From: Azolla caroliniana
Taxonomy: Eukaryota > Plantae > Polypodiophyta
Reading direction: 5' to 3'
Assembly: GCA_043228905.1 (NCBI GenBank)
Contig: JBHGNT010000006.1
Span: 19,902,001-19,966,000 of the forward strand
DNA: 64,000 nt
The notes below the pieces were generated by a model. That model saw nothing but the letters and a program-made list of their open reading frames with translations. It was not told the origin of the DNA and searched no databases. Within the stretch, counting starts at the first letter, position 1; every line of letters begins with the position of its first letter. Shown here piece after piece: positions 1,775 to 48,028 of the stretch. The position numbers and the translations under genes are program-made.

Positions 1775-3627
1775 GTGGAGGAGGACCGGTTTCGGAGGAT
1801 ACTCGAAAGGCACAGGAAAGCCTTTGCATTCTTGCCGGGGGAGATCAGGTGCTTAGACCCGACTATCGTTGAATCGATGGTGATCTGCACGGTACCGCAC
1901 GTGTCGTGGAGTCTCAAACCGATTCCGGTACTAAGGGCTCACATCCCAAAGTTGATGGAGCTGCTCAAACAGAAAGTGGAGATGGGCATCCTCGAGTTGT
2001 CAAACGCCCCATATTCAAATCGGTGGTTTACAGTGCCAAAGAATAACAACACATTGTGCTTCATCCAGGACCTGCAACGGGTCAACAAGGTGACAATTTG
2101 GAATGTAGGAATCGGGCCGACAATTGATGAGTTTGCGGAGGCCTTCGCTAGAAGGTCAATCTACTCGGTTGGCAATTTGTACTCGGGGTACGACCAATTC
2201 CAGCTAACCGTGGAGAGCAGGGATATCAACACAATGTGAACCCCTCTTGGCCTAGTTCGGATGCGTACCCTGCCACAAGGAGGGACCAATTCGGTGGCAC
2301 ACATGCTGAACGCAATGAACAAGGTTTTGCAGGATTGCATCCTGGACATCACCATGCCATTATTAGATGACATCCCGATCAAGGGATGTCCGGAGGAAGC
2401 GAAGGATGAATCGATCGGGTTGGACGGATGCCGGAAGTTTGTCACAAACAACATCTCTGACTACGAGAAGATACTGCAAATGCTTGAGGGCGCTCGGCTT
2501 ACCTTCTCCGGGGAGAAGTCAGCTTTCGAACAATCCGAGATCCTAGTAGTGGGGCACCTGTGTGGACCATACGGCCGAAAACCGTCTCTGGCGAAGGTAG
2601 AGGCCATTGCTGGGATGGAGGAATGCAGGTTGGTCACGGAAGTCCGAAGATTCCTAGGTGCGTGCACCTTCTACCACGTTTGGATTCCGCACTACGCGCA
2701 CATCGTAGAACTGCTCTACGGATTGCTAAAGAAAGGCCATAAGTTCAATTGGAAAGAAGAACACACAGAATCGGTCCGGAGACTGAAAAAGGCGCTGACA
2801 GTGGCGTTGGCTCTCCGGAAAGCGGTATACAAGCCAGACACTCCAGTTAATGTAATGTTGGACACAAGTCCTACCAGAATCGGATGGGTGATCAACCCGG
2901 AGGAAGAAGCGGGCACGTGGTTCCCTATCCAGTTCAACACGAAGGTGCTAAGCGAGCGACAACGAGGATACGCCCAAGTTAAACGCAAACTCTGGGGTAT
3001 TGTTTCAGCAGTTAAGGCCGACAAAGACTACTTGATAAGGGCAGAGGTTATAATCGAAATGGATTGCTTGCCGATTCTCGGCATGGTTTCCGGGTGCACG
3101 ACTCTGAACCTGGCGATGCTCAGGTGGATGCCGTATATAAAATCCCTGAATCCGGAGATCCGACACATTTCTAGAAAGGACAACGCCATGGCCAATATGC
3201 TTTCGAGAGCACGGTTCGACAACGACGACGGCATGGTGTCAAAGGACGAAGAAATCGGTGTGGATTTCTTCGAGTCTGCCCGACTTAGGGCAAATAGACA
3301 CAACACTCCGGCCCTAAACGAGTTCAACGAGAACAACAACGAAGAGGAGTGGCTACTGATCGGCAAGTTCCTAAGCACGATTGCACAGGACGCGGCGTGG
3401 ACAAAAGACGAAGTGAGCTGGATCTGAAAGAAGGCATACCGGTACTTCCTACAGAACAGCAAGATATGGTGGCATCCGAAGAAGCGGATTGGCACACCAC
3501 TCCTAGTGGTGATAAAGAAAGAAGACGGTTCGGTGCTACTATCGGAATTTCATGAAAGCCCTTGGTCCGAACACCATGGAACCTGGGCCACATTCGAAAA
3601 ACTGAAGGAGAAGTATTGGTGGCCGGA
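1775..3627 (+). mobile_element. Ty3/gypsy pol fragment: RT, RNase H and start of the integrase Zn-binding domain, with stops
   Basis: SGYDQF, LPQGGTNS, LLDD, FLGAC, DTSPTRIGW, KDNAMANMLSR, HESPWSEHHG...KYWWP. Stops at 2237-2239 and 3425-3427; truncated at ~3627. Confidence 0.9.
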
Positions 3628-13619: not shown

Positions 13620-13943
13620 AATGTCACTACCACAAGTTTCTAACTTCCAAAACACGAATGCAATTTCGGACTTGTTTTTCACTTCTCTAACTTTGAGACA
13701 AGTGTTGGGTTAATATGGCAGCTACTGCAAATAGGCATATATCATTCAAGACGTGTATAGTTCCTCTTTCATATTTGTTGATAAGGGCCAAGCCAAGCTT
13801 CTCATTACACCCACACACCACATCATCCTTGCCATCCTCATCCAAAGGCTCCTTCAGCCAATGGTTAGTGGAGATAGCTTTTATCCATTCATTTGTACCA
13901 TAATATTGAGAATGCTTTATATCCCCATGACCAAATATATGTT
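13620..13943 (-). pseudogene. Decayed E+/DYW deaminase domain downstream of the PPR stop
   Basis: Broken frames read HIFGHGDIKHSQ...DEDGKDDVVCGCNEKLGLALINK...ICSSCH (13715-13729)...TLVSKLEK*...NCIRVLE, collinear with the DYW consensus (HxExLA, CxxCH, ISKI). Confidence 0.75.
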
Positions 13944-16928
13944 TTATATCCCCACACCCTTTCCTTGCTTATCCCAAGTAGCATATCTCTGCTTCATGGC
14001 TTCGATGTTTTCTGCCTCCTCGTGCAAGCCAGCACCCATATAAATATTAGCCATAAGCACATAGGCACCACTAAATGTGTTATCTATCTGCAGAACTTGA
14101 TCAAAAACCATCTTGCCAAGCTTCACATTTCCCCATTTTCTACAAGCACCCAATAGTGCAATCCAGACAGTCGGATTGTTAGAATGTGGCATAGCCTTAA
14201 TCACCGAGATTGCGTTATGGAAATGTCCAGTAAATCCAAAACCAACCACCATACATGTATGATGCCCTACATTTGGAATAATCCCATAGTCTCTAATCAT
14301 ATAACCAAAAAGCATTTGGGCTTCACACAATAGCCCAGATCGATTGCATGCAGTTAGAATACATAGGAGTGACACTTCATCAGGCAGCATCCCCTCGCTT
14401 TGCATCCTTCTGAAACAATCCATCGCTTCAAAACCTTGCCCTTGTTGTGCATACCCTGCTATTATTGTGTTCCAAGAGATTGCATTTCGAACTGGAAGCT
14501 CTTCAAGCACTTGTCGAGCTTTTGCAACCAGGTGGCATTTGACATACATATCCACTAAAGCGTTGCCAAGCACAATATCCTTATCCTTCTCTAGCAAACC
14601 CCTACATACAATCTCATCATGAATTTGCTTGCCCTTGTCTGTAGCTCCGATGCTGCCACATGCCTTCAAGGCACAAATGAAAGTAACATAATCTGGAACA
14701 AGACCCTCCTCTTCCATCCTTTCCAAACAATTCAATGCTTCATTACCTTGAAGTTGTTTTGCATAACCTCCAATCAACACATTCCATGAGACTACACTTC
14801 TTGCAGGGAGCTCTTTGAGCACTTCTTGTGCTTTCATAGGATTGCCACATTTAATGTACATATCTACCAAAGCATTACCAAGTGTAATATCTTTATCCAA
14901 TAATCCTCCACTTACAATCTCTTCATGAATTTCTTTTCCCTTCTCTATAACACCTGCATCACCACATGCCTTCAAGATGCATGTAAAAGTGATGGCGTCT
15001 GGAGAGAAACCCTCACTTCTCATCCTTTCAGCACATTTCAATGCTTCATGTCCTCTACACTGTTGGGTATACCCTGTAATAAGTGTAGACCAACCCACTA
15101 CATCTCGAGTTGGAAGTTCTTCAAGCACCTGTTGTGCCTTATCAACCACACCACATTTTGTGTACATTGCCACCAATGCATTACCAAGTGCAATATTCTT
15201 CTCTAGCAAATCCCTACTCATAATCTCATCATGGATTTGTTTACCCATATCAATAGATTTTGTGTTACCACAAGCTTTCAATAATGAAAGAAAGGTGACC
15301 ACATCTGGTGTGAGACCCTCTTTTTTCATTTGTTTGAAACAATTCATAGCTCCATCACCTTGTTCATACTGAGCATACCCTTCAATTAATGCATTCCATG
15401 TCACTACATTTTTTACAGGAAGCTCATTAAGGACCTGCTGTGCTTTAACAACCACACCACATTTGGCATACATATCTACCAAAGATGTTGCAAGAGTAAT
15501 ATCCTCTGGCAGAAAACCCCTATCTACAATTTCCTTGTGAATTTTCTTGCCTTCGTCTATAGCTCTTGCACTGCCAACAGCTTTCAAAATGCAAACAAAA
15601 GAGACTGCATCCGGACAGAGACCCTTTCTTTGCATTCGATCAAAACATTTTAGTGCTTCTTCCCATTGTCCTTGCTGAGCATAGCCTCCAATTAATGTAT
15701 TCCAAACAACTATGTTTTGAATCGGAAGCTCTTCAAGCACTCGTTGTGCTTTTTCCATGAAACCACATTTCGCATACATATCCACCAAAGCATTTCCTAG
15801 CACAAGGTCATCCTTCAGCAATCCCCTACTTACTATCTCCTCGTGAACTTGTATGCCTATACCTATAGTTCCTATCCTGCCACAAGCCTTCAAGATACAA
15901 GTGAAGGTTACAATATCCGGAGAGAGACCCTCCCTTTGCATCCTTTTCAAACAAATGAATGCATTATGACCTTGCCCTTGCTCGGCATATCCTGAAAGTA
16001 GAGTATTCCAAGACACTATATCTCGAGCATGAAGCTCTTCAAGGACTTCTTGTGCCTTCACAACCATACCAAATTTTGTGTACATATCTACCAAAGCATT
16101 GCCAAGTACAACATCCTTAGCCAGCAAGCCCCTACTCAAAATCTCATCATGAATTTGTTTGCCCTTGTCTATAGCTCCTAGACTGCCACAAGCTTTCAAA
16201 ATGCAAATGAAGGTAACCCCATCTGGAAATAGGTGCTCGCTTTGCATCTGCTCAAAACAGTTCAATGCTTTGTGACATTGGCCTTGTTCAGCATATCCTG
16301 TGATTAGTGCAGACCATGACACGACATCTCGAACAGGAAGCTCTTCAAGAACTTCTTGAGCTTTTGCAAGCAGACCACATTTGGCGTACATGGTCACTAA
16401 TGCAGTGCCCAGTACAATATCTTTCTTGAGCAAGCTTCTCTTTATAATCTCATCATGGATTTGTTTGCCTTTATCTATGTCCCTTATGCTGCCACCCGCC
16501 TTCAAGATGCAAGTGAAAGTGAACACATCTGGTGATAGGCCCTCATTTTGCATCCAATCAAAACAGTTCAGTGCTTCATGACTTCTCCCTTGTTGGGTGT
16601 ATCCAGAAATGAGTGCATTCCAAGAGACTATATCTCGAACAGGAAGTTCTTCAAGTACATCTTGCGCTTTTGAAAGTGCGTCGCATTTAGCATACATACT
16701 GATCAAACTACTGGCTAGATAAGGGTTTCTCTCAAGCAAACCCCTTTCAAGAATTTCAGCATGTAACATTGAGCCTTTATAGAGATCCTTCTTCCTCGCA
16801 CAAGCCTTGAGCGAGGCAACAAAAGTAAAAGTTTCCTTACTCTTTTCATAGCTCATTTCCTTATCATGCTTTTCATTTAGCTCTCCATGCATTGAAACCA
16901 TATTTGCTCCATTTCTCAGCACTTTCAC
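13944..16928 (-). CDS. PLS-class PPR protein with E domain (L-S-(P-L-S)x7-P2-L2-S2-E1-E2), organellar RNA-editing-type factor
   Basis: 994-aa ORF with regular VSWNALI..Y / TF..ILKAC / LGNALVDMY.KCG motifs and the E motif WIALLGACRKWGNV. The true start is uncertain (first ATG ~16901). Confidence 0.95.
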   Translation of the reverse strand: MKVLRNGANMVSMHGELNEKHDKEMSYEKSKETFTFVASLKACARKKDLYKGSMLHAEILERGLLERNPYLASSLISMYAKCDALSKAQDVLEELPVRDIVSWNALISGYTQQGRSHEALNCFDWMQNEGLSPDVFTFTCILKAGGSIRDIDKGKQIHDEIIKRSLLKKDIVLGTALVTMYAKCGLLAKAQEVLEELPVRDVVSWSALITGYAEQGQCHKALNCFEQMQSEHLFPDGVTFICILKACGSLGAIDKGKQIHDEILSRGLLAKDVVLGNALVDMYTKFGMVVKAQEVLEELHARDIVSWNTLLSGYAEQGQGHNAFICLKRMQREGLSPDIVTFTCILKACGRIGTIGIGIQVHEEIVSRGLLKDDLVLGNALVDMYAKCGFMEKAQRVLEELPIQNIVVWNTLIGGYAQQGQWEEALKCFDRMQRKGLCPDAVSFVCILKAVGSARAIDEGKKIHKEIVDRGFLPEDITLATSLVDMYAKCGVVVKAQQVLNELPVKNVVTWNALIEGYAQYEQGDGAMNCFKQMKKEGLTPDVVTFLSLLKACGNTKSIDMGKQIHDEIMSRDLLEKNIALGNALVAMYTKCGVVDKAQQVLEELPTRDVVGWSTLITGYTQQCRGHEALKCAERMRSEGFSPDAITFTCILKACGDAGVIEKGKEIHEEIVSGGLLDKDITLGNALVDMYIKCGNPMKAQEVLKELPARSVVSWNVLIGGYAKQLQGNEALNCLERMEEEGLVPDYVTFICALKACGSIGATDKGKQIHDEIVCRGLLEKDKDIVLGNALVDMYVKCHLVAKARQVLEELPVRNAISWNTIIAGYAQQGQGFEAMDCFRRMQSEGMLPDEVSLLCILTACNRSGLLCEAQMLFGYMIRDYGIIPNVGHHTCMVVGFGFTGHFHNAISVIKAMPHSNNPTVWIALLGACRKWGNVKLGKMVFDQVLQIDNTFSGAYVLMANIYMGAGLHEEAENIEAMKQRYATWDKQGKGVGI

Positions 16929-18924
16929 AACCTAAGAGGAACTCTGATACCTATCCATCCATAAGGACTCATATGTGATTATGTGTTTTAGAAAAATCTA
17001 CTGATCTACTCAAATTCTGTCTTAAATATAGGAATGGTTGCTCATTCGCTTCCTTTAATTTACTAGAATTGCATGAGAAGAAAGTAAAGTCATTCCAAAG
17101 AAGTATTGAGTTTGAGTTTGTGATGGATGCATGCCATTAAGAAGTGGTTTATAAGATTGGATCATTACAGTTTATGGTTGTTTGCTATGCCAACGTATCA
17201 TGGCTTGGGAGAAATACAGGGCTCACTCGTACACCAGATATGTTGCACCCAATCACCAAAACATCTTCTTCGAACGCAAAAATCACACACCCTTGCATTC
17301 TTAACTCCACTCACCTTACCTGCAATCCATATCGTTAATTCTGTTTGGCTAATGTCTCACTCTCTTTGATATGAGACAAGATGTTGAGCCCCTAGCAAGG
17401 CATCCCATCAATTGTGCAGTTTCTGCCTTGAAGAAATTTAGTGAGCATACATGTCACACTCTACCTGACTGCTCAGACTTCGATCACAATAGAGTTTGAT
17501 GTCTACACATATTCAGACATGATGTATCTGTGTGACGTTTCTCTCCCAGCCACAATGTCCTCTAGGCTCTCAATTGCTACTCATATTACAATTCTCAATC
17601 TTCGTATGCTGCATGTTAGCTCTGCACACGTTACATGAGAATGTTTCTTTAGATCCTATAAGTCATATTCAACCTCTACAATAAAATTTATCCATCTAAA
17701 TATCTTTGTTTTCTTTTCATTTTTTGATCGAGAAACACAACTTTCATTAGAGCTTGCTTTCCCCACGTTTTCAACCATGATCTATCCCTACACAGGTTTC
17801 TCTCCTGAGACACAATGTGGACACTCTATTGCAATGCTTATTAGTAAAATAAACAACAAACATTACATGAAAAATGTTTCCTTTGATCCAAAAAGTCATA
17901 TCTAGATTCCAATTACAATAATACAATCCATCTATCTATTACTTCATCTTCTCTTCCTCATACAAATACAAAAGCTTATATTAACCTATACCAATATCTC
18001 TTTGTCTCTGTCGAGCAGTTGGTTTAGCATTTTACACAATCACATCAAAGTCATAAAATTGAAAGAACCGAAGTTCAATCATCACCCCGAGCTCATCCCC
18101 ATCCCACAAATCACAATCACACTCCTGACAACATTACGAAGATGTTTACCTATCCATCTATCTCTCTCTAACGTGTTGAGGAGTCGACATAGAGCGGGCA
18201 GCAATGGAAACTGTGAGTACAAGAATACAAGGCATGTGGGCCATACCATCACCAGATCATGGAGATAATTGCTTTCCATATCCAATCCGCCCGAGGAGAG
18301 CCAAATGCACTTGGTGAACGTCATAATAGCCTTGCTCCACCACACCGATCAACTGTGGATACTATGTCCCCTCACCATTTCAACTCATACACATTAGTTA
18401 TGCATTTCATGGTTACAAATCATCTCCAGAATCATTTCACTGCATGCATTAAGATCATTATCATGAATCTACTAGATTTTTCTTTTTTTGTTTCAGTATT
18501 GGCAACATCATTTCACCATATTTGTGGTTTGTATTATAGGCCGACGTAGGCCTCTTGTAGGCATTTATACCTCTCTATCTATCTAGATCTTTGTCTCTAT
18601 CTCTATCTCTATCTATCTATATATCTCCCTATCTCTCTCAACATCAACCAAACAAACAAATTGTCCTGAACATCTCTCAATATAAGTGTTTCTGAACACA
18701 AAGATCTCACCTTGTTACGTCGAATTTTCTCGCCATTGCAGAGGATCCTTGAAGAATTCCTTCCAGAAGCGGACCATCCTTTCACAGGGACGATTCAAGC
18801 TCCCCTGTTTCGCCATAGCTAGAGGAGGAGGCCGACGCCATGGCCATGGCCAGATAGTCCATTCGGGTCCACGAACTATTGCATTTTTACAAAAATGGCC
18901 CTCCACTTATGCATTCTTTCAAAG

Positions 18925-24995: not shown

Positions 24996-25189
24996 ATAGA
25001 GGTTGTTAGAGTCAGGGTATCAAAAACACGCGCACTTTTTTAGATAAAAGATCTGACGGTGCCATATTGCACGGACCCTCGGAAACGCGTCCTGCACAGT
25101 CCGTGGTCATGATTCCCTCGTAGGCCTCGTTATGATTTGGTAGCAAATAGGGACGACCACATGGTATGATATGTATGTATGTGTGACAG

Positions 25190-25787
25190 AACGCTTCACC
25201 ATCGTCGACCCACTATGGGTGCAGCTACACCAGCAGGCAATGAAGGAGCAAGACATCCTTAAGAAAGTTGCGCAATGTGAGATTACGTTCATTCCGATCG
25301 TGCTTGATGGGCATTGGAACTTGTGGTTCACCATGCGACAACAAGCTTCTAAGCTAACTAGCAAAGTAGTCTTCTGCGATCCATTGAACAGACCAGCAAC
25401 AGACAACATGCGGAGAATGGCAGAGTTGGCGATTCGGACAATTTCATCTGAACCGTCAGACCACACCATTGTGCCCAATGGTCGACATCAGGTACTGCAC
25501 ATCCCAACACAGCCAAATTGTTGGGATTGTGGCTTTTATGTGATGAAGACTATCCAAATGTTGGTGAGGGAGTTCTTAGAAGGATGGATATCTTCGACTT
25601 TTGTAAGTGTAATTGCAATTCCTTGTTCATGTGGATTGTGTATAGATGTGTTCTTATACATATTTGGTTACAGGGCACAGAGATGTGGTTCACCAAACGC
25701 GAAGTGGATTCACTTCGGATTCATGTGGACGAGTGGGCACGATCGGTATTAGGATTTGCACCTGCGACCGGTGGCTCCATATTGTAA
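25190..25787 (+). CDS. Ulp1/C48 SUMO-protease-like fragment carried by the MULE (5'-truncated; intron ~25603-25673)
   Basis: Catalytic signatures GHW, FCDPL and QPNCWDCGFYV; GTAAGT donor and TTACAG acceptor; last exon reads ...EMWFTKREVDSLR. Confidence 0.75.
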
Positions 25788-25895: not shown

Positions 25896-26312
25896 CGCGA
25901 TTACTTATTAATGGAAATGTTGTTTACAACAATTATTTATCTCAATCTGAATGTATTTATCTCAATCTGAATATTGTGGATGATCTGAATGTATGGTTTT
26001 AAACCAATCGCAAGTTGTGGTATTGTAAACGCGATTACTTGTTAATGGAAATGTTGTTCCCAACAATTATTGTGGATGTTCTGAATGTATGGTTTTAAAC
26101 CAATCGCAAGTTGTGGTATTGTAAACGCGATTACTTGTTAATGGAAATGTTGTTCCCAACAATTATTGTGGATGTTCTGAATGTATGGTTTTAAACCAAT
26201 CGCAAGTTGTGGTATTGTAAACGCGATTACTTGTTAATGGAAATGTTGTTCCCAACAATTATTGTGGATGTTCTGAATGTATGGTTTTAAACCAATCGCA
26301 AGTTGTGGTATT
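25896..26312. repeat. 96-bp tandem repeat (~4 copies)
   Basis: CGCGATTACTT starts at 25896, 26030, 26126 and 26222. Confidence 0.95.
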
Positions 26313-26336
26313 GCCCAAACCTTTTAAAATTAATTA

Positions 26337-28066
26337 TGGCTCATGTCCAACCCTACTTGCCTGGTGAATATGGATCTCCCGCAAGGCAACCGTTCATCTT
26401 GGTGCTCCAAGATGAATGGATGTTAGAGATGTGTGAGCGACTGTCGATAAACAACTCTTGGGCAATCGACTCCACGTTTAAAACAAACCAATTTGGCTTG
26501 CCATTATATGCAGCTGTGGCTCCAAATGCCATGGGAGTTGGTATCCCATTATGGTACATGATATGTAGTTCTGATAAGGGGTCTAACCATGAGCAAGTAG
26601 CTTTAGAAACTTGCTTGAGAGTCATATTTGCACGGATGCCCAATGTGAGGCCAAATGCCATAGTCATCGATAAAAGTTGGACATCGTATAATGCCATAAG
26701 TAATGTGGTTGCAACAGACCGATTATCTTGGATAGTTACAAATGGGCAAAGGTCGCAAACACATTGTCGACTTTTGTTGTGTCACTTCCATGCAAAAAAA
26801 GCATGGTTGGACAACTTGTTGCCAAAGGTAAGTGCAAGTGAGAGAAACCACCTTTATAATCGGATGTGCCAACTCATGCAATGCATTACGGAATCCACAT
26901 TCAATGCCCAATGTGAGGACTTAAAGGTAGAATATGCAAACAAGCCAGGTGTTTGGCAATATATAGAAGGAGGATGGTGTGGCTTGACATGTGTGTGGAG
27001 GAAACTGTGGCCCAAATTTGGTAGAATGTTCAACTACGGACATGTTGACACTACCAATCTTGTGGAGAGACATTGGCAGTTTATCAAATATACTGCCTTA
27101 AGAGGGAGGATAAACCGATCAATTACCGATCTTGTGCATGTTTTAATCGGGGACAGTCAAACTGGCACTTGCATCGGGGGTACTGTTATTGAATGGTACA
27201 AGCAACCACAAGAAATATGTGAGAGTGGTAGATTTGCACCACGTGCAAATTGTAGGGATCAAACAACTAGACTTAAAGAGGCCGAAAGGCTACTAGAGAG
27301 GTATGAAACTAATAATGCGACAATGCATATTGTGGACGAGCCTCGATATTGGTTTAAAATATTGAGCTTGACAAAACCGGATGTATGGTATAATGTATTG
27401 CTCCAATGTTCATATTGTGATTGCCACGACCCTGCGAGTAAATGTAAGCATATACTTGGCATCAGGATGATTATTGAGAGGCACATGCCACATCTATGTG
27501 GGTCATTGCCTTTTATAGATCATGCAACCTATATGCGCAATGACCATTTCACAGAGACGGAAATGGAGACAGAGGTAGAACCAGTCGAGGAGACAAACCC
27601 TATAACATCACGAGTGGAGGAATGTTTGTCGAAATTACAAACGCTTGAGGGGGCTATTCAATGTTTTAAGCAAGGGTTACAATCCCTCGACTGTGCAGCA
27701 ATTTTGGCATGTATGGAGTCCATTCAAGAAACAAGTGAGACATTGGTGTATCACACAGGTGCACCGAAACCAACTAACGAAGAAGACCGTGGATCCATAG
27801 GGCGTAAGCAAGCAATTGGTGCAAAAAGGGGAGCATCAATCAACATTTCACAAGATCTTATTGGCAGCTCCCCAAACACTTCCAAGGCACACACAGGAAA
27901 AATGCAAAGAGGCGCAAGTCGAGCTAGGAGGCGGTTGCCAATATGTGCGACAGATAAAATGCGATGCTTGCATTGTGATGCCTTGACCTTTAGATCAAGG
28001 GACTCAAATGTTGATTGTTGCAAGAATTGTGGTCGCATCTTGCCATCATCTCCGGATGAGCCATAA
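26337..28066 (+). CDS. Mutator/MULE DDE transposase with SWIM Zn finger (N-terminus absent)
   Basis: WAIDSTFKTN (D1), IVIDKS (D2), LCHFHAKKAW (CxxH), TTNLVERHW (E), SWIM CDC...CKHI, C-terminal CxxC...CxxC. Confidence 0.92.
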
Positions 28067-31800: not shown

Positions 31801-32256
31801 TAACGTGGACCTAACCGAGATATGAGATTGTGGCTGGAGCACTCAGGGTACACATGCAGACAAAAGCCATGAACTTTTCTTGTTGAATTACAGCGTCAAA
31901 TCTAATCACAACACTAATTCACCTTTGTCATGTCTATCCCCATGTTTAGTTTAACGGTTTAACCTAATTTATGTGGGGTTAAATTTTGTAAGTACTAAGG
32001 GGATGATAGATAGTATAAGGACAAATGTGGTCACTCATGTATAGATGTATTTGTTGTGTGACATGTGGATTATCATATGCTGATGGGTAAGGAGGATTGA
32101 AGAGTCCATATGGTTGAAAGTTTCTTGTAAAAAAATTCTATGCTTTCTGGATTGTAATCTGTGTTTTAGCTCTTCTTAACTGTGTGTACTATGAACCTTG
32201 TTTACCATGCACATATTTATTAACTTTACGTCAACCAACTTTTTCGTAATGTGCAG

Positions 32257-32879
32257 CTTTGTCGAGTGAGGTTGTGACACAAACTTCTGGAGCATCTGCT
32301 GTTAGTGTGGTAAAGGGTCCCGATTCGAACATTGTGTATGATGAATCTGTCCATGAGAGATATCCTCCAGGTGACCCAAGCAAGCAGGCATTCACATACT
32401 TCGTTATGACAGGAGGAAGGTTTATCTATGCATCTATGATCCGCTTGGCTATACTGAAGTTCATATTGAGTATGTCAGCAAGTAAAGACGTTTTAGCTCT
32501 TGCTTCTTTAGAGGTTGATCTGAGCAACATAGCACCTGGCTCAACAGTTACAGTGAAATGGAGAGGCAAGCCAGTTTTTATTCGTCACCGAACTGATGAG
32601 GACATTAAATCGGCAAATAATGTGACTCTAAGTGAGTTGAGGGATCCTCAAACAGATTCAGAGAGGGTCATTTCCCCTCAATGGCTTGTTGTAGTTGGAG
32701 TTTGTACTCATCTTGGATGTGTTCCATTGCCGAATGCTGGGGAGTATGGAGGTTGGTTCTGTCCTTGCCATGGTTCTCACTATGATATCTCTGGAAGAGT
32801 AAGGAAAGGCCCTGCCCCGTATAATCTAGAGGTGCCGACATACAAGTTCTTAGAAGAACAGAAATTGCTGGTTGGTTAG
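32257..32879 (+). CDS. RIP1: Mitochondrial cytochrome bc1 Rieske iron-sulfur protein, last exon
   Basis: CTHLGC and CPCHGS 2Fe-2S motifs, [12 protein letters not shown], plant-type [12 protein letters not shown]; TGCAG acceptor at 32256. The upstream presequence exons (~28900-30160) were not resolved. Confidence 0.95.
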
Positions 32880-36310: not shown

Positions 36311-37709
36311 CTTCAATATTCTCTGAAACACAAATCGTTACCACACATCAAAAACATTGTATACATATCACTAATTATCGACACCTCAACACATGACTTG
36401 GAACTTGTGGTTGTGACCTACTTCTATGATGCTAGTTATGGTTCAATGCTCTACACCTTTTAGATGAAACAAAGCAGTCCACACCATCAAGCTACACAAA
36501 AACAATATTCCAACACATTCCCAATGTTGGCTATGGTGGGGCTCAAATTCTTTCTCGGAATTGACCCATGGGAGGATATATGTTGACCTTATTTGATAGT
36601 TTGTAGAATGATATCAACGAAAAACTAGTCATGTAGTAATGTATGTCTCCAACAACCAACCCCCCATTGAGTTCTTGTTCTCTATGGAGGATATAGAAAA
36701 CACTCTACCTCCCAAGAGACAGTGTCTCCTTTACCCATCCCCACATACTTTGAAGATATACCTAACATCATCATTCCAAAACTATGGTGGCACTTGATGA
36801 ATGTGCCAAGCGAACTACATGATATATGTCGAGAGTCATCCCAAGTCATTGATGCAACCAACAATGACAATGTTCAACATGCACATCAAAAGCTTGTATT
36901 CTAGGCAACATACATGTTGATGTTTGATTGGTCCCGCTATTCTTTGTTGTTCAAACCTTAAATTTCAAGGTAGCATGTATCGAAAATTACAAGACCTATA
37001 TCTTTACTAGATATGGAGAACTACATTAAAATTAAATGTTGGCTTACTATCACGGTAATGTTATGTAGTGTGGCACACCGATGGTATTTTATGTTTGTCA
37101 CAAGCCCTTCCCTCGGAAGTAGTAATCAAGTGTGGTTAAGCACATTTAGCCCATTCCTTTCCTTAATCTCTCATTCTTTTGTTCATCATTAGTTTGATCT
37201 GTAATAGTTCCTATGATTAATTGATTGGGACCATGAGCTCGTGTTTAGTATCATATAATAAATTGGTAACGTTTCATAGCTTGGAAATTTGCTGAAGGGA
37301 AAAATCATCAGAACTTTTGTAATTTGGAAAAATTTATAAAATATTGTAGGTTTTACTCAGAAACCCATTATGGAGAATACAGATATTTCCATGGCTTATG
37401 ATGTTCCAGAGAATGGCCACTTCTGAACGCATCATGACATGAGGATTATGATAGCCCCATATTGAAAAGCCCTCGTATCCTTCCTTCTTAACCACCTTTT
37501 ACATAGAGAATGATGAGACAGCAAATTAAATCAATTGTTGTTGCCCTAGTTTAACACATAGGTATAAGGCTAAGTATGTGGCCATTGTATTATATAAGCC
37601 CAATAGAAGATAATCATTGTAATGTTAAGGCTTAAGCATTTCATGTAGAGAGAAAGAGAAAGAGAAAGAGAAAGAGAGAGGATTCATGAAGCTCTGACTT
37701 AGTTAGTAT

Positions 37710-39341
37710 ATGAAGAACTTAGAAGGTTTCACCTTTGTGGCCTTACTCAAGGCTTGTACCAAGAGAAAGGATGTCCAGAAAGGCATCAGATTACATGATG
37801 AGATCTTAAGAAGAGGTCTGCTTGACAGAAAGAACCCTTATGTAGCAAGTACTTTGATCAATATGTATTCCAAATGTGGTATGCTTGAGAAAGCAAAATA
37901 TGTGCTTGGAAAGCTTCCGGTTCGAGACATAGTCTCTTGGAATGCACTCATGTCTGGGTATGCTCACCATAAGCAATTTCATGAAGTGCTAGAATGTTTT
38001 GATCGCATGCAAAAGGAATGTCTTTCGCCGGATGTGGTTAGTTTTATATGTATCTTGAAGGCATGTGGTAGTACAAGAAACATAGAAAAAGGCAAACAAA
38101 TCTATGATGTCGTTGTGAATAGCGGGTTGTTGGAGAAACATGTGGAGCTCGGAAATGTTTTGGTGGATATGTATGCAAAATGTGGTATGCTTGAGAAAGC
38201 GAAGCAAGTGTTAGAAGAGCTTCACATACGGAATGTTGTCTCTTGGTCTTCATTAATTGGTGGATATGTCCAACAAGGTCAAGGTGAAGAAGCATTGAGT
38301 TGCTTTGAGAGAATGCAAAGTGAAGGATGCCCTCCAGATGCAATCACATTTAGTTCTATCCTAAAAGCTTGTGCTATTACTGCAGCCATATGTAAGGGTA
38401 GCATCATTCATGAAAAGATTGTGAGTAGGGGATTGTTAGAGAAGGACATCGTTCTTGGAACTTCTTTAGTGGATATGTATGCTAAATGTGGTATGCTTGC
38501 AAAAGCACAAAAGGTTCTCAAAGAGCTTCATATTAAAAATGTTGTCTCATGGAATGCATTAATTGCAGGATATGCCCAACAAGGGCAAGGTCATGAAGCA
38601 TTGAGCTGTTTTGAGCATATGCAAAGCAAAGGTGGCCCTTCTCCAGATGCAGTTACTTTCACTTGTGCTTTGAAGGCTTGTGGTAGCATAGGAGCAATAG
38701 ACAAGGGCAAACATATTCACGATGAGATTTTGCATAGAGGATTTTTGGAGAAGGATACTATGCTTGGTAATGCTTTGGTGGATATGTATGCCAAGTGTGG
38801 TATGCTTGCAAAAGCACGACAAGTAATTGAGGAGCTTCCTGTACGAAATGTAATCTCTTGGAATGCACTAATTTCTGGGCATGCCCAAGGAGGACAAGGT
38901 CGTGAAGCATTAAACTGCTTTCAATATATGCAAAGTGATGGTTTATCACCTGATGAGGTTACTTTCCAATGTGTTTTACGAGCATGCACTCATGCAGGAT
39001 TATTAGATGAAGCTCAGTTGATGTTTGCAAACATTTGTAGAAATAATACCATCATCCCGAGCATAGAGCACCATAGTTGTGTATTGGTTGTTTTGGGATG
39101 TGCTGGGTACTTTGATGAAGTGTTATCCGTGACTAAAGTGATGCCATTTTCTGATCATCCTATAGTTTGGCTTGCAGTGTTGAATGCTTGTAGAAAATGG
39201 GGCAATGTGAAACTTGCGAAATTTGCTTTCAATCAAATAGTTGAATTTGATCATAATTGTGCTGCTGCAGATGTTCTTATCTCTGATGTTTTTGCAGCTG
39301 CTGACATGAAGGTCGAATCTATGAAATTGAAGCATGAGTGA
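37710..39341 (+). CDS. PLS-class PPR protein, E subclass (~14 motifs)
   Basis: 543-aa ORF with PLS triplets and the E motif WLAVLNACRKWGNVKLA. Confidence 0.93.
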   Translation: MKNLEGFTFVALLKACTKRKDVQKGIRLHDEILRRGLLDRKNPYVASTLINMYSKCGMLEKAKYVLGKLPVRDIVSWNALMSGYAHHKQFHEVLECFDRMQKECLSPDVVSFICILKACGSTRNIEKGKQIYDVVVNSGLLEKHVELGNVLVDMYAKCGMLEKAKQVLEELHIRNVVSWSSLIGGYVQQGQGEEALSCFERMQSEGCPPDAITFSSILKACAITAAICKGSIIHEKIVSRGLLEKDIVLGTSLVDMYAKCGMLAKAQKVLKELHIKNVVSWNALIAGYAQQGQGHEALSCFEHMQSKGGPSPDAVTFTCALKACGSIGAIDKGKHIHDEILHRGFLEKDTMLGNALVDMYAKCGMLAKARQVIEELPVRNVISWNALISGHAQGGQGREALNCFQYMQSDGLSPDEVTFQCVLRACTHAGLLDEAQLMFANICRNNTIIPSIEHHSCVLVVLGCAGYFDEVLSVTKVMPFSDHPIVWLAVLNACRKWGNVKLAKFAFNQIVEFDHNCAAADVLISDVFAAADMKVESMKLKHE

Positions 39342-42182
39342 AACAACCTTGAACATAAAGGTTGTAATAGCCTTTGAAAGAATTAAGAGAGGTAAAGCAC
39401 GTACTATCCTTCAAATTATATTTGAAAATGTGAGTTGTATGCCCCTCACAGACACTATGCTTGAAAAGCATGTGGCAGAATCTTTGCATGAAAGAGAAGG
39501 TACAAAAGATTGAATCCATGAAACTGAAATATGCAATGAAACAGCCTTCAATGTAAAGGTTGCAACATCCTTTCTGAATGATTAGGACAAATAAAAGAGA
39601 TGTCAAAGTGAAGGGCTGATAAGATTCTCCTCTTTCCTCTCATCCTAATGCTAGTAATTCCACTCGAGGCATATGAGAGTTGAGGGGATAGACAGACAGA
39701 AATAAAGATGTATTAATGTCTACTACTAAAGGCCAAAGGGGGTCTATGAGACAAATCAAGATTATGAATATGAATAAAGTCATGTTGTCAATACTGAAAC
39801 GAAAATAAAAGCTCTAGATTTCTTAAGATTCATGATAATGATCTTAATGCGTTGGTGGCATGCAGATCAGACATGACGAGCAATGATATCCATGGTCTGG
39901 TGATGATATGGTCCCATGTAACATATCCTGCTACCTGCTGTCTCCATTGTCATCGGCATTCCTTAACGCTCTCTATGATGATCCTTTGGTGTGTTGTCAG
40001 TGGAGGTGTGGGGCTATGGAAGAATTCAGTGATGCACGATTGTCGTCGCATCTTGTCCTAGTATAATGGTTGAATCACCTATGTATTTGAAGTTCGAGCA
40101 AGTTTTGGCCAAAGAGTCATAGATCGGCCCTTCCCATCATTTGTCAAATGGTGATGAAGTCCACGTATATAGGGTGATATACTTTAGCCCAACGTTTCTT
40201 TATTTCAGCTATGATATTGTCTAAGCTCTTGACATCACTTTCTTTTGCTAGGGAGAGTTCTACATTACTCCTCGTAGTGCCTTTTACCCTGTCATTTTGT
40301 CAACTTGGCTTCATATTCTCGAGGTTAAGGTCAAGTTCGCCTTCTTCATCATTAGTAATTTTCACCTTGATCGCTTCAAATTCAGTTCGAACAAATTTGA
40401 TATATTCTTCAAAGGATGGAGATTTGACGTTGTAAGGCATTCATCAAATAAAATTTGACCTAATAAAATTGGGAAGTGTTTTCTAAAGGTTCATGAAACG
40501 TCCATCCAATGTTTCAAGACTTAATGCGTGTGTAGTTTATGTGTCTATGTGTAGTTGTGTAGTTGTGTGGGTGGCACTTGAGGGATAGAATAATTACTTG
40601 TGCGTTAGAGAAGAAGAGAAAAAGAACTCCAAAAAATACAAACATTAGCTGAAACAAAAAACCCTAAAAAGGAAGAAAAACTTCTAAAACTAAGACAAAG
40701 AAACCATAAAAGTGCAGCCAGAATGAAACCCTAAGGTTCAGCAAGAACAAAACCCTAAAAATTCAGTACAAAGGAAACGCTAAAAGCACAACAAAGCAAA
40801 ACCTTTAAAACTCAGCAGAATAGGATTTAGTCAATTTGAACATCCAATACATATTGCCAAACCCCATCACTCTTAGCAAGGGTTTTGGATCGGCATGCTT
40901 TAGGCTACCACCAATTGTCTATGAAAAAGGTTGTTTTGGTTTGCAATAATATGCTAATTAAATGTCTTTGTCAAATGTGATCAACATAAGGATCTTGATT
41001 TGTTGGAGACAATATATGGTGATGCACATCAGAGTTTCAAGAACTACCTCATACATGCTTCAACAACAATTTTAAGGCAGAATTAAAGCCCAACTTATGG
41101 AATTGGAGGATATCCAGATGGTTTGCAACTGAAGATATATGCATTTAGGATACTTCTATGTTGATCAAGAGTACAGTTTACTTTCAGCCAATATCCTGAC
41201 AGAATGGCTATCAGAAATTTAAACAATTAAGGGTGCTCTTTTTGTTGTTGTTAACTTATCTCTAAAATCTAATGATGTGCAAGATATGTCCATAATCTTA
41301 GGGCATCAATGGATTTGTGGAGCCTTCGTGGAGAGTCTCATAGCTTTAGATCAATCCAAAGAATTTTTTTTGCAAGTCAAGAACACACACGTGGTGCAAA
41401 GAAAACATTGAAATTTCATCCATGTCGATAGAGTCCCGTTTCCATGGATGAATGTGTAGTATATTTATTCTTTATAGCTTGGCACATTTGTATACTAGTT
41501 TAAATTCGTAGTTTGTGTGAGTTTGCATGAATGAGCCGTCTCTACACATCTGACTCATTCTGACATAGATGCACTAATGTACTGATGAATTTCAGCTGCT
41601 ATGTTTGCACTAATGTAATGGCTATGAACCTTTAAAAGCTTTGTTCATGCATGCATAGCCACCGGCTGAAGTAGTAGTGATGGCTAACAAAGCAGGGAAA
41701 CATAAAAGTATGGGGTGTTCCTTTTGTAGGAGAATTATACGGTACTGGAAGACTTCCAAGAGATATGGCTTACTCTCCAAAATATGAAAGGATTTTGGCA
41801 AGTAAGCCCTCTCTCATGGAATCAACTAATCTAATCTTAACCGAATCAAGTAGAGTTTTCATGAAACAATGCCAGCTTCATTGGACAAGTAGACATGGAG
41901 GGTGTGGTTATTTGTCTTGTTGATGTACTGTGGCTAGCTGTAAAAGCATCATATGTAAGGAACAAAATCATACTTTTTTCTCATCATTTTCTATTTTTTC
42001 ATACATGAAACGGTCTCGGGAAGAAGAAATTCCTAAATCATGGAAATTCATCATACAACCAACAAGCTTCAATAGTTTGTCGATTTCTCTGTCCCAACAT
42101 ACACCCTGAAACCTAGTCGACTGTAAGGTTCTCTAACAGAGATTTAAATTAATGGGCAGAAATTTATGCATTAAAGTTAAGA

Positions 42183-44072
42183 ATGGAGGGCATGGAAAGA
42201 CATAATGCCTGTGTGGCCTTAATCAAGGCATGTACAGGGATCAAGGACCTGTCTCGACTTCATGCAGAGATTCTAAGAAATGGATTTTTGCATGGAAAAA
42301 AAGGACACATTATAGCTACCACCCTGATTAGCATGTATGCAAAATGTTGCCTTTTCTCAAAGGCCCAAGAGCTTCTTGAAAACCTTCATATCCAAGATGT
42401 AGTCTCATGGAATGCACTCATTGCAGGGTACATAAAACAAGGTCATGCCCATGAAGCCATAAGATGCTTTGAAAATATGAAGAAAGAGGGCCATGTCCCT
42501 AACCAAGTAACCTTCATATGCATCTTGAAAGCATGTGGGCTTGCAAGGGACAGGTGCAAAGGTAAGCAAATTCATGAAGAGATTGAGAGAAAGGGGTTTT
42601 TGATGATGTTAGAGAAGGAGGTAAATGATAATGTGGTTGTGCTTGGTACTTCATTGGTGGATATGTATGTGAAATGGGGGGATTTGGCTGAAGCCAAACA
42701 AGCTCTAGAAGGGCTTCAACTCCGAAATGTGGTCACTTGGACATCCATCATAGTAGGATATACCCAACAGGGACAATGTTATGAAGCATTCGACTCTTTC
42801 ACACGCATGCAAGCAGAGAGCCTCGCCCCGAATATGATCACTCTCGTTTCTATCCTGAAGGCATGTGGGAACATAGGTCAAATACACAAGGGTAAGCAAA
42901 TGCATGTGAATGGGGGCTTACTAATGAAGAAGGAGAATGAGATTGGCATGCTTGGCTCTGCTTTGATTGCAATGTATGCAAAGTGTGGTGTACTCTCTAA
43001 AGCTCGACAGGTGCTCGACGAGGTTTGTACCGATGATGTGGTTTCATGGAATGCACTTATTTCAGGTTATGCCCATTGGGATCAAGCTCACAAATCAATC
43101 CTCTCTTTTGAACGCATGCGAATGCGTGGCATCTTGCCCGATGCCTTTAGTTTTGCTTGTGTCTTGAATGCATGTGGTGAGACAGGGGATATTAGTAAGG
43201 GTAAACAAATCCATGAAGAGATTAAGATGAATGAAAACCGGATGTTAGAGAAGGATGTGGTGCTTGGCAATGCTTTGGTGGATATGTATACCAAGTGTGG
43301 TTCTTTAGAAACTGCAGAAAAGGTGCTCAAAGAGCTTCCGATCCGAAATGTGGCCTCGTGGAATGCCCTCATATCAGGATATGTTCGGCATCAGCGGTAT
43401 CATGAGGCATTTGATTGGTTCGAAAAGATGAGAAGTAGTGAGAAGGGCTCCTCAAAACCTGATGCCATTACATTCCTTTGCATCTTGCAAGCATGTGGGA
43501 GCATAGGGGCCATTCATAAGGGGAAACAAATACACAATGAGCTTGTTTCCAAGGGCTTTCTCAAGAATAATATCAGCCTTGGCAATGCAGTGGTCGACAT
43601 GTATGCACAATGTGGTATGCTTGCCATAGCACATCAAGTGCTCGAGGAGCTTCCTATTCGAGATGTGGCTTCTTGGAATACACTAATGTCCACATACGCC
43701 CACAAAGGGCAAACCCATGATGTCTTGTATTGTTTTGAGCACATGCGAAGTGAAGGCTTGTCTCCAAATAAGGTCACATTCACTAGTGTTTTAAGTGCAT
43801 GCGGTCGTTCAGGACTCTCTAAGGAGGCTGAGTCACTCTTTAGCTATACCACCAAAAGATATGGTGTTATTCCGAATATAGAGCACCATAATTGCATGGT
43901 CGCTATTTTAGGGTGTGTTGGGCATTTCAGTAAGGCAATGTCATTAATGAAGTATACACAATCTTTGGATAATATGGTTCTCTGGGTTACATTGTTGGGT
44001 GCGTGTAAAAAATGGGGGAATGTGGAGCTCGGGACATTGGTATTTGATCAAGTTTTGCAATTAGACAATTGA
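42183..44072 (+). CDS. PLS-class PPR protein with truncated E domain (~17 motifs)
   Basis: 629-aa ORF ending WVTLLGACKKWGNVELG...QLDN*, where the paralogs continue into E2. Confidence 0.9.
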   Translation: MEGMERHNACVALIKACTGIKDLSRLHAEILRNGFLHGKKGHIIATTLISMYAKCCLFSKAQELLENLHIQDVVSWNALIAGYIKQGHAHEAIRCFENMKKEGHVPNQVTFICILKACGLARDRCKGKQIHEEIERKGFLMMLEKEVNDNVVVLGTSLVDMYVKWGDLAEAKQALEGLQLRNVVTWTSIIVGYTQQGQCYEAFDSFTRMQAESLAPNMITLVSILKACGNIGQIHKGKQMHVNGGLLMKKENEIGMLGSALIAMYAKCGVLSKARQVLDEVCTDDVVSWNALISGYAHWDQAHKSILSFERMRMRGILPDAFSFACVLNACGETGDISKGKQIHEEIKMNENRMLEKDVVLGNALVDMYTKCGSLETAEKVLKELPIRNVASWNALISGYVRHQRYHEAFDWFEKMRSSEKGSSKPDAITFLCILQACGSIGAIHKGKQIHNELVSKGFLKNNISLGNAVVDMYAQCGMLAIAHQVLEELPIRDVASWNTLMSTYAHKGQTHDVLYCFEHMRSEGLSPNKVTFTSVLSACGRSGLSKEAESLFSYTTKRYGVIPNIEHHNCMVAILGCVGHFSKAMSLMKYTQSLDNMVLWVTLLGACKKWGNVELGTLVFDQVLQLDN

Positions 44073-45760: not shown

Positions 45761-46342
45761 TCAACTACCTTGAGCTTGAGATCCGTGGCCTCCACCAGTA
45801 TTGGCAGACATTTGATAGGTAGATTGGACATATTGTTGTTGAGGATACATATAGCCACCTGATGGTGGTTGTTGAGCCATATGCATATGCCCACTTGAGA
45901 TCCCATTAGAACCTCCTCCATCTTTGCCAACCACCACTGGATCTCCTTGCTTTGCTACAGTAGACCTCTCCCCTTCAAACTCCCTATACTTGTGAAGATA
46001 AACTTTTAGTGGCTCAATGTAATCCTCAAACCCCAAAGTGCTCATGGCCCATAACAGATCATCACCATTTACCGTTTTTCTCTTCTCTCTCTGACACTTA
46101 TCTGATGCCTCTCCAGTTATGAAGCTTATGAATTCAGAAACACATTCTTGGAGAGTCTCTTTAGCATCTTTTGATATTTTGGCATTAGCTGGTAAAGCTC
46201 TCTTCATGATTCGGCTTACATTTGCGATGGGCAATAGTCGGTCTTGTTCTTTGATGCTATCACTTCCTCCATGATGTCCACCTGAATCATCATCAGACTG
46301 ATGACTGTCCGGGCTACCTTGGCGGTAGTTATTTGCCGCCAT
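45761..46342 (-). CDS. NF-YB: Nuclear factor Y subunit B (HAP3), non-LEC1 type
   Basis: [16 protein letters not shown]...[25 protein letters not shown] histone fold. The ATG at 46342 follows a TTGTAG acceptor, so there is a probable 5'UTR intron with an upstream exon near 48400-48500. Confidence 0.95.
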
Positions 46343-48028
46343 AAATCTACAACAAGCATGAGCCAATTTCTAAAATTCAAATATATAAACATTGATGGCA
46401 TCATAGCATATATTGCACTCTAAAAATTTTAGCAGTTGAGAGTTTGAGTCTCATGCAATGGGCTTTTATGTTACAGTCATTATAAAAACTCATCCTAATA
46501 TGCTTGGAGTTAATCCTCTATCTTTTGCTTGTCCTTAACGGGATGAAATGAAAATTCATACAGATGCTGCATGGCTGTTGTTAGCTAGTGTCATGAGACA
46601 TTTCTGGTTAGCTCCTATAACAAGCAAACCCCTCATTTTGTGTTACGAAGATATGCTGCTCTCATTGTTGTTTCAGATCATGCCTCGTTAATTTGATCCT
46701 AGTAAATTTTAATAACTACATTGATGCTGCCACATTTCCACAATAACAAAGAGTGAAAAGGATAGCATTGCCCAGTAGGAGACAATAATAATAGGCAGTG
46801 GTTAATGCTCACCAAATGGCCATTTTCCGATGTTTTGTTATAACTTTCGACCATTTTCTATGATTGAGGTTTTAAAAAATTCCCCCAGCTCTATAGCAGA
46901 ATTGAACAATTCACTTGCCAAAGGAAATTCGTCTATACTTGTAGTATTTCATAGGATATAAATTCCACCAATGATTTGTACTCGGGTGAGTCCTTTAGGT
47001 TCCAAACAGTAAAACACTGCATCATCATCACTGCCTGATGCTCTTTTTCTCTCCAAATCTCAAGATTACCTAAATTTTCAAACCTGCTTTTTCTCAAAAA
47101 CTCTAAATTTTCTAAAATTATAATCACATATATAGACATCCAGGATATTCATCATCATCCAAATTACCACAATGTCATGTGGAGCCGTTTTTCTCTCTCA
47201 AAAGTGCCTGAATTTCTATATAGACTGTAGGATCATCGTCCCAATCATCCTTCAATGCCATAAGAGATGGGTGGAAACTTTTCTTGACACTCAAAACCCC
47301 TAATTTACTATAATCCAATGCTTTACCGTAGAAACCTTAATAAAATAAGTAAACTAAGGTATAATCATCATCATTATGAGCAGAGTATTTGGTTCAAAAC
47401 CCTTAAATTACCATAATGCCATGTCACAATGAAAAGCCCGGTTTTCGCTTAAAGACACTAATTTAATTTCCTAATCACAGTTTCAGGATTCATACATGAT
47501 GAAATGGGTTAATAAAAATTAAATTTTTTTAAGAGAAGAGAAGGATTTTTCACGTGCTTATTATTTATGAGGAAATGGAGGTCTCTAAATTTAGGCTTTT
47601 TAACAGAAGAAATATGTTTATCTAATGATTTAGTCATGAGAAATTTGGTGTTTAATACTTTAGGTATTTAGTTTTTTGCGAAAAAAGGGCGTTTCTGCAC
47701 GACATTAATAAGCAATTAGGGTCTCTACATGACATTAATATGTGATTAGAATTTCAACATGAAATTATTTTATGTGATTGATGTTAAGCAATATATACAT
47801 ACACTATTGTAATATGGACTAAGTGTATGAGCTGAAAAAGTTTAATAAAATGTAAAAAAACGGTAAGCTAAAAAAAAGAAAAAAAGCTACATGATAAGTT
47901 CAAAGACATCCAAAAATCTGTGCCTGGGTAAATAAGGATAATAAAAGCACTGAGGATTTTATATAGGAAAACAGTTAACAGCATTCAAAACAGAGCAATG
48001 GGGTTAAGGATTGTTCAAAACAACCAAC

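Follow-up and report, generated by a model that had tools for sequence, protein, structure and literature searches.

What stands upstream of the long pentatricopeptide repeat (PPR) gene on the minus strand of a 64,000-nucleotide (nt) stretch of the fern Azolla caroliniana (GenBank assembly GCA_043228905.1, contig JBHGNT010000006.1, positions 19,902,001 to 19,966,000 of the forward strand; hereafter, the window)? A preliminary description had read this region as two or three decayed PDF motifs, the kind found in organellar OSB proteins, fused ahead of a PLS-E-DYW editing factor. Judged from sequence comparisons, the locus is probably the decayed 5′ end of a PLS-E PPR gene in which a single OSB-type PDF motif lay across an intron, ahead of the PPR array, and it would represent, in decayed form, a PDF-PLS(-DYW) variant of the organellar editing factors that seems not to have been described before.

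All four strings quoted in the preliminary description exist in the window sequence, and the outer ones make up the motif. On the minus strand, 18768-18724 translates to FWKEFFKDPLQWREN, followed by one surplus base, RRNK at 18722-18711 and, immediately next, the splice donor AAG/GTGAG. The coding part of this exon 1 (18711-18816), which is supported by a profile hidden Markov model (HMM), the rank of its donor and a spliced contig, opens with an ATG at 18816 (MAKQGSLNRPCERMVR) and takes in the first half of the motif (18768-18711), where a +1 frameshift falls near 18723. At plus-strand position 18717 the window has A where all four compared runs have G, and the window base gives TAA in the exon 1 frame. 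The 3′ piece is opened by an ACAG/ acceptor: 17016-16993 reads NLSRSVDF, four surplus bases follow at 16992-16989, and then come KHIITYESLWMDRYQSSS, a TAG at 16934-16932 and the PPR frame. This start of exon 2 (16926-17016, minus strand) thus carries the 3′ half of the motif in frame with the PPR open reading frame (ORF). Between the two exons would lie an ancestral GT-AG intron of 1694 nt in phase 0 (17017-18710, minus strand), interrupting the motif after WxDxRxxK.

Two profiles were used to assess these pieces. The OSB-only HMM was trained on 75 motifs taken from 32 OSB-like proteins that lack PPRs, chosen to guard against circularity, and HMM A1 was derived from five Adiantum PPR proteins with a complete N-terminal PDF motif. 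In the OSB-only HMM, the exon 1 piece fills columns 4-22 and the exon 2 piece columns 26-50; as the two cover consecutive halves of the profile, they represent one motif spread over two exons. Joined, with an X marking each break, they reach 28.1 bits, while shuffled sequences top out at 8.9 (976 scored of 1000), so that the PDF motif of an OSB protein is present at the locus in degenerate form. HMM A1 has its top match in the window at 18768-18718 (columns 16-32, E 1e-4); at 16991-16926 it matches over columns 42-63 with an E value of 0.058, level in second place with an unrelated site in the window.

The splice sites agree with this arrangement. A splice- and frameshift-aware scan with the OSB-only HMM, which allowed one frameshift at each GT or AG and adopted the split point after K from the preliminary description, ranked the 18711 donor first of the 6900 GT sites in the window (18.4, runner-up -10.8) and the 17016 acceptor first of the 7467 AG sites (2.3, runner-up -22.7). 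Joining the two leaves eight residues between the K and the F of PDF, identical to the OSB spacing. The decay described earlier is borne out, as two frameshifts and one stop, and so is the tie to the PPR gene, since the complementary half is in frame with the PPR ORF and in exact register with the splice sites. On these sequence grounds, we take the motif to be an OSB-type PDF motif, present as a single copy and belonging to the PPR gene.

The idea of two or three motifs at the locus did not survive, and we now consider it extremely improbable. Members with two or three motifs do exist elsewhere, mostly in Diphasiastrum but also in P0131 and P0162 (see below); here, however, the outer pieces are complementary halves and the middle fragments behave like chance sequence. 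Of these, RH(fs)SQTELTIWIAG reaches 0.5 bits and the LWNDF frame -0.5 bits. The stretch that holds both (17040-17400, minus strand) scores no higher than 0.7 bits with either HMM, has no match in a six-frame scan and is intron sequence. A strong donor-like site, GCAG/GTAAG, lies inside the intron at 17320 on the minus strand and may mark a further leader exon.

The gene to which the motif is joined is a PLS-class PPR open frame of 995 codons (13944-16931, minus strand), with its first ATG at 16901, its stop at 13946-13944 and an E motif at its end (PF20431, residues 935-981, 35.1 bits against a cut-off of 27.3). Pfam PPR families match it and the translation shows regular triplet repeats of about 102 residues each, whose members would be P, L and S. 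A Pfam scan of the ORF found no SSB domain, and only 16 codons separate ATG 18816 from the motif, after which the array follows, leaving no SSB-like OB fold. Of the PLS-E-DYW editing factor proposed earlier, the PLS-E part holds. The DYW part does not, for downstream there is only a frameshifted E+/DYW remnant (13660-13950, minus strand), recognized by tblastn with fern DYW tails, in which HSE has become CNE and CxxC is legible in another frame. No in-frame DYW domain with HxE..CxxC is found at the locus, and several indels occur in the remnant among related runs.

One might suspect an assembly error behind the frameshifts. This was considered and rejected: in X2, a DNA run from a second study with the same species label, one contig spans 16850-18950 with seven substitutions and no gaps. 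Exon 1 is crossed without gaps by X3 and exon 2 by X18, and X8 crosses exon 2 with a single gap, at 17035, outside the exon. The frameshifts are thus real and shared with relatives. (X8, X12 and X18 were treated as DNA, as their contigs run through the intron.) Very deep contig coverage of short stretches within 17990-18480 of the intron was seen in the DNA runs and marks repeat elements.

Evidence of splicing comes from X5, taken as RNA by guess, in which one contig (depth 7.9, 100 letters on its shorter side) lacks a shorter GT-AG intron at 18362-18710 on the minus strand. It uses the same 18711 donor, which is therefore live. The alternative exon that follows the 18362 acceptor runs from 18361 to at least 18073 and, by the HMMs and its translations, does not code for PDF; the splice is not shown in X2, X3 or X8. 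X5 has no cover at 16992-17843, and this was not used as evidence.

Intact fusions of PDF and PPR, which the preliminary description had anticipated in other plants, were found, with one to three motifs per protein. A protein search with HMM A1 gave 435 matches; the best 120 include OSBs as well as PPR proteins from Adiantum, Ceratopteris and Diphasiastrum. When the query was the region of a Diphasiastrum protein that holds three motifs, Sphagnum, Calypogeia and Ceratodon were added (best 120 of 190). With PPR marks defined by regular expressions, 139 of the 463 proteins retrieved have a complete PDF motif and at least three PPR marks, and the motif comes first in 138. Where a source is named, the intact proteins belong to ferns, Diphasiastrum, Sphagnum, Ceratodon and Calypogeia; the DYW domain is complete in many of them, and the motif is present in Pteridium transcripts too. 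PDF and PPR marks occur together in 118 of the best 120 of 190, with one motif in 85, two in 27 and three in 6, and 46 of the 118 have an HSE..CxxC ending. Members with two or three motifs are mostly from Diphasiastrum, but include P0131 of Pteridium and P0162 of Adiantum.

The fused consensus keeps the OSB positions W, WWDNR, PDFKHK, LW and PxW, and in mosses and a liverwort the motif reaches 66-76 bits. Among 22 fern members examined, picked from the best 120 of 435, 20 have a single motif and none has an intact HxE..CxxC ending, although many of the gene models are incomplete. A median of about 23 residues precedes the motif in these ferns versus 72 in 90 mostly lycophyte and moss proteins; the short fern N-termini reflect either incomplete gene models or different targeting. 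P0460, a Ceratodon purpureus PDF-PLS-DYW protein, has an extended leader at its N-terminus. An ortholog in Physcomitrium may be among the characterised editing factors, in which case the motif could be tested directly. No named fusion from a seed plant is among the matches listed (best 120 of 435 and best 120 of 190), which is a weak test of their absence.

The closest relatives can also be approached from the PPR side. Named relatives of the PPR protein are proteins of Adiantum and Ceratopteris (best 120 of 2767). Among 120 PPR relatives picked regardless of PDF, 11 carry an N-terminal motif: complete in five, all of them Adiantum proteins, degenerate in one, and reduced to the 3′ half in five. 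The 5′ half alone was seen in none of the 120, a pattern that fits a shared intron with an exon 1 missed by the gene models. In a quick tree, the window protein is sister to P0086 (SH-aLRT 92), which begins with the 3′ half and aligns with the window over the half motif and the linker (E 1.5e-9). This tree holds the 75 rows that passed a regular expression, and it does not settle whether the fusion had a single or a repeated origin.

Is the gene still maintained? In six listed pieces of the ORF, X8 differs from the window at 43 of 2004 letters with no gaps, and its intron pieces differ by 5-10%; X18 differs at 80 of 2107 letters in ORF pieces, again with no gaps, against about 8.5% and 45 gap letters in the intron. 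The lower divergence of the PPR frame than of the intron in these relatives suggests constraint on the frame. Several points weigh against our interpretation, beginning with these divergence figures, which come from the listed pieces only and have an 88% likeness floor. In one X8 contig, beside another without it, a single base is inserted at 15290 within the ORF, and inspection by eye shows no obvious transit peptide either after ATG 16901 or in exon 1; given these two observations, the gene may be turning into a pseudogene. The acceptor at 17017 has a weak pyrimidine tract. The join of 18711 to 17016 is absent from the contigs listed, the sole spliced contig using 18362. Within the 11-row clade of the window protein in the quick tree, only P0086 shows a half of the motif, and an intron position common to ferns would rest on protein models, which is indirect.

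The same spliced contig bears on a reading in which exon 1 is part of a separate OSB gene, or of a non-coding transcript, and lies upstream of the PPR gene by chance. In that contig exon 1 continues at 18361, and among the contigs listed there is none that links it with the PPR ORF. The preliminary description had named splicing of the 18711 exon into a separate OSB gene as a refutation; what the contig joins instead is the 18362 acceptor, and the alternative exon from 18361 has no PDF match. Moreover, the complementary half of the motif stands in frame and in exact register with the PPR ORF, and the exon 1 ATG, 16 codons before the motif, leaves no room for an OB fold and resembles the fern fusions with their median of 23 residues. 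We judge this reading very improbable.

The favoured explanation is that the PDF motif was likely once spliced together across the intron and fused before the PPR array, and that two frameshifts and a stop codon now disrupt it, with the PPR frame remaining open. At this locus the PDF module would be dispensable, or the gene may be on its way out; exon 1 likely persists as a 5′ leader, and any protein would begin at 16901. Editing by the E/DYW region, or recruitment of a deaminase, is standard for PLS proteins. In intact members the array would accordingly read an organellar RNA site, with E/DYW editing it or recruiting a deaminase, and the PDF motif would bind ssDNA without sequence specificity, as in OSBs. 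So bound, it would keep the editing factor at the nucleoid beside nascent transcripts. By analogy with OSBs, we offer this role as an ssDNA tether tentatively, at somewhat less than an even chance. On a bolder view, which we think unlikely, PDF-PLS-DYW would be an old, overlooked class of editing enzymes of seed-free plants that docks on nucleoid ssDNA and edits nascent RNA while it is transcribed, and whose module was dropped by seed plants; at its most extreme, the class would also deaminate cytosine in the displaced DNA strand, linking editing to change of the organellar genome.

Two other roles have to be weighed for the same anatomy. The N-terminal side of a PPR array faces the 5′ side of its RNA target, and it is there that the PDF motif sits; it could bind single-stranded RNA 5′ of the PPR site, where it would raise avidity or prevent the target from folding, as a built-in stand-in for the MORF or ORRM cofactors of seed plants. 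The named fusions among the matches listed are all from seed-free plants, and PMC13386178 reports MORF proteins from gymnosperms and angiosperms. However, PMC6963530 and PMC6451138 describe PDF as binding ssDNA, the consensus of the fused motifs has not clearly moved away from that of OSBs, and seed-plant absence was tested only weakly, within the best 120 of 435 and of 190. We regard RNA binding as somewhat unlikely, though worth keeping in view. More doubtful still is that the motif is a passenger, captured once with 5′ exons of an OSB gene and copied through PPR expansions without a needed function. Such a history would suit a locus where the motif decays while the PPR frame is kept, and the degenerate or half motifs in 6 of the 11 carriers among the PPR-selected relatives. 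It sits poorly with near-consensus conservation across ferns and a lycophyte, with the scores of 66-76 bits in mosses and the liverwort, and with copy numbers of up to two or three in some members; and since the OSB motif is C-terminal, it would not have travelled with a transit peptide.

Structure and wider homology add some context. Predicted structures of the fused and the OSB motif are both helix-strand-strand-helix with high pLDDT. Pfam had no relevant match for two fused motifs, and solved structures gave none by sequence at E<=10; by fold, Foldseek found none at E<=0.001 and the best VIA-align Z was 4.1, which is not proof of a new fold. Fold searches with a PDF+PPR model matched the PPR part only, among them 5orq, a designed PPR solved on ssDNA, which leaves action on DNA conceivable, and an Atlas search had no usable match. 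A search of representative proteins was dominated by OSB-like and PDF-array proteins (best 150 of 798). The latter include P0239, P0241, P0243, P0246, P0247 and P0282, with 6-11 tandem PDF motifs after a hydrophobic leader; all six lack PPR marks, show no obvious OB fold and are possibly plastid ssDNA binders, and P0239 is from the dinoflagellate Effrenium voratum. Among 67 candidates from a scan of prokaryote genomes there was one match, which lies at the end of a 1.6-kb contig in a metagenome-assembled genome (MAG). This match (L001:3-95, a Xanthobacteraceae MAG) has 31 residues with 45% match to the motif and is either a bacterial relative or contamination.

How does the family compare with known systems? 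The PDF motif of OSB1 suffices for ssDNA binding, according to PMC6963530 and PMC6451138. The motif of about 50 residues and its predicted order of elements are common to OSB and PDF-PPR proteins, but the latter have no OB fold and carry the motif N-terminally, fused to a PLS array (and broken at this locus), whereas in OSBs it is C-terminal. With PLS-class editing factors (E, E+, DYW) the locus shares the P-L-S array, the E motif and a DYW remnant, and intact relatives end in HSE..CxxC..DYW; what the fusions add is the N-terminal PDF module. Extra PPR domains listed in the parts available of PMC9459714 (RRM, LAGLIDADG, SMR, NYN, CBS, SAP) and PMC13386178 (RRM, MORF, RanBP2 zinc finger) do not include PDF, and in the latter, an InterPro-based survey of 2026, the terms OSB, PDF and ssDNA do not occur in the text available. 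The RRM-PPR and other hallmark-domain fusions described there likewise join an accessory nucleic-acid-binding domain to a PPR array, but theirs are RNA-binding and detected by InterPro, whereas PDF is known for DNA binding and has no Pfam match. The DYW:KP U-to-C factors of hornworts, lycophytes and ferns (PMC9478123) are also PLS-DYW proteins of seed-free plants; they have a KP box, an HAE site and a variant last triplet, whereas all 46 intact fusion tails have HSE and end in DYW, NYW or DFW, the canonical C-to-U type. At the locus, the remnant is too highly decayed to show DYW:KP features, and the intact non-fern fusions are of the HSE type. We found no description of a PDF-PPR fusion in the literature searched, though Zaegel 2006, Gutmann 2020, Gerke 2020 and Kwok van der Giezen 2024 may mention it. 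A putative N-terminal PPR domain named "CURE" was not traced there.

Elsewhere in the window, Pfam marks two further ORFs for PLS-class PPR proteins, again of this fern type (37707-39341 and 42153-44072, plus strand), around which HMM and splice-aware scans found no PDF halves, and a MULE transposase (26291-28066, plus strand). Next to the transposase is what we take to be a protease-like ORF (25144-25752, plus strand). The remaining ORFs are presumably retrotransposon-like (2240-3427 and 59197-59841, plus strand), Rieske iron-sulfur protein-like (32250-32879, plus strand) and NF-YB-like (45761-46369, minus strand).

The locus itself is a ruin, but it points to the family and indicates that loss of the module is possible. 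With the PDF motif, considerably more than a hundred predicted editing factors from mosses, liverworts, lycophytes and ferns gain a domain that Pfam did not recognize in the two fused motifs submitted to it. For designers of RNA editors, a 55-residue single-strand-binding module placed before a programmable PPR-DYW protein is of interest. For the biology of seed-free plants, the family offers direct tests of a coupling between organellar editing and transcription at the nucleoid, and of what replaces the MORF cofactors.

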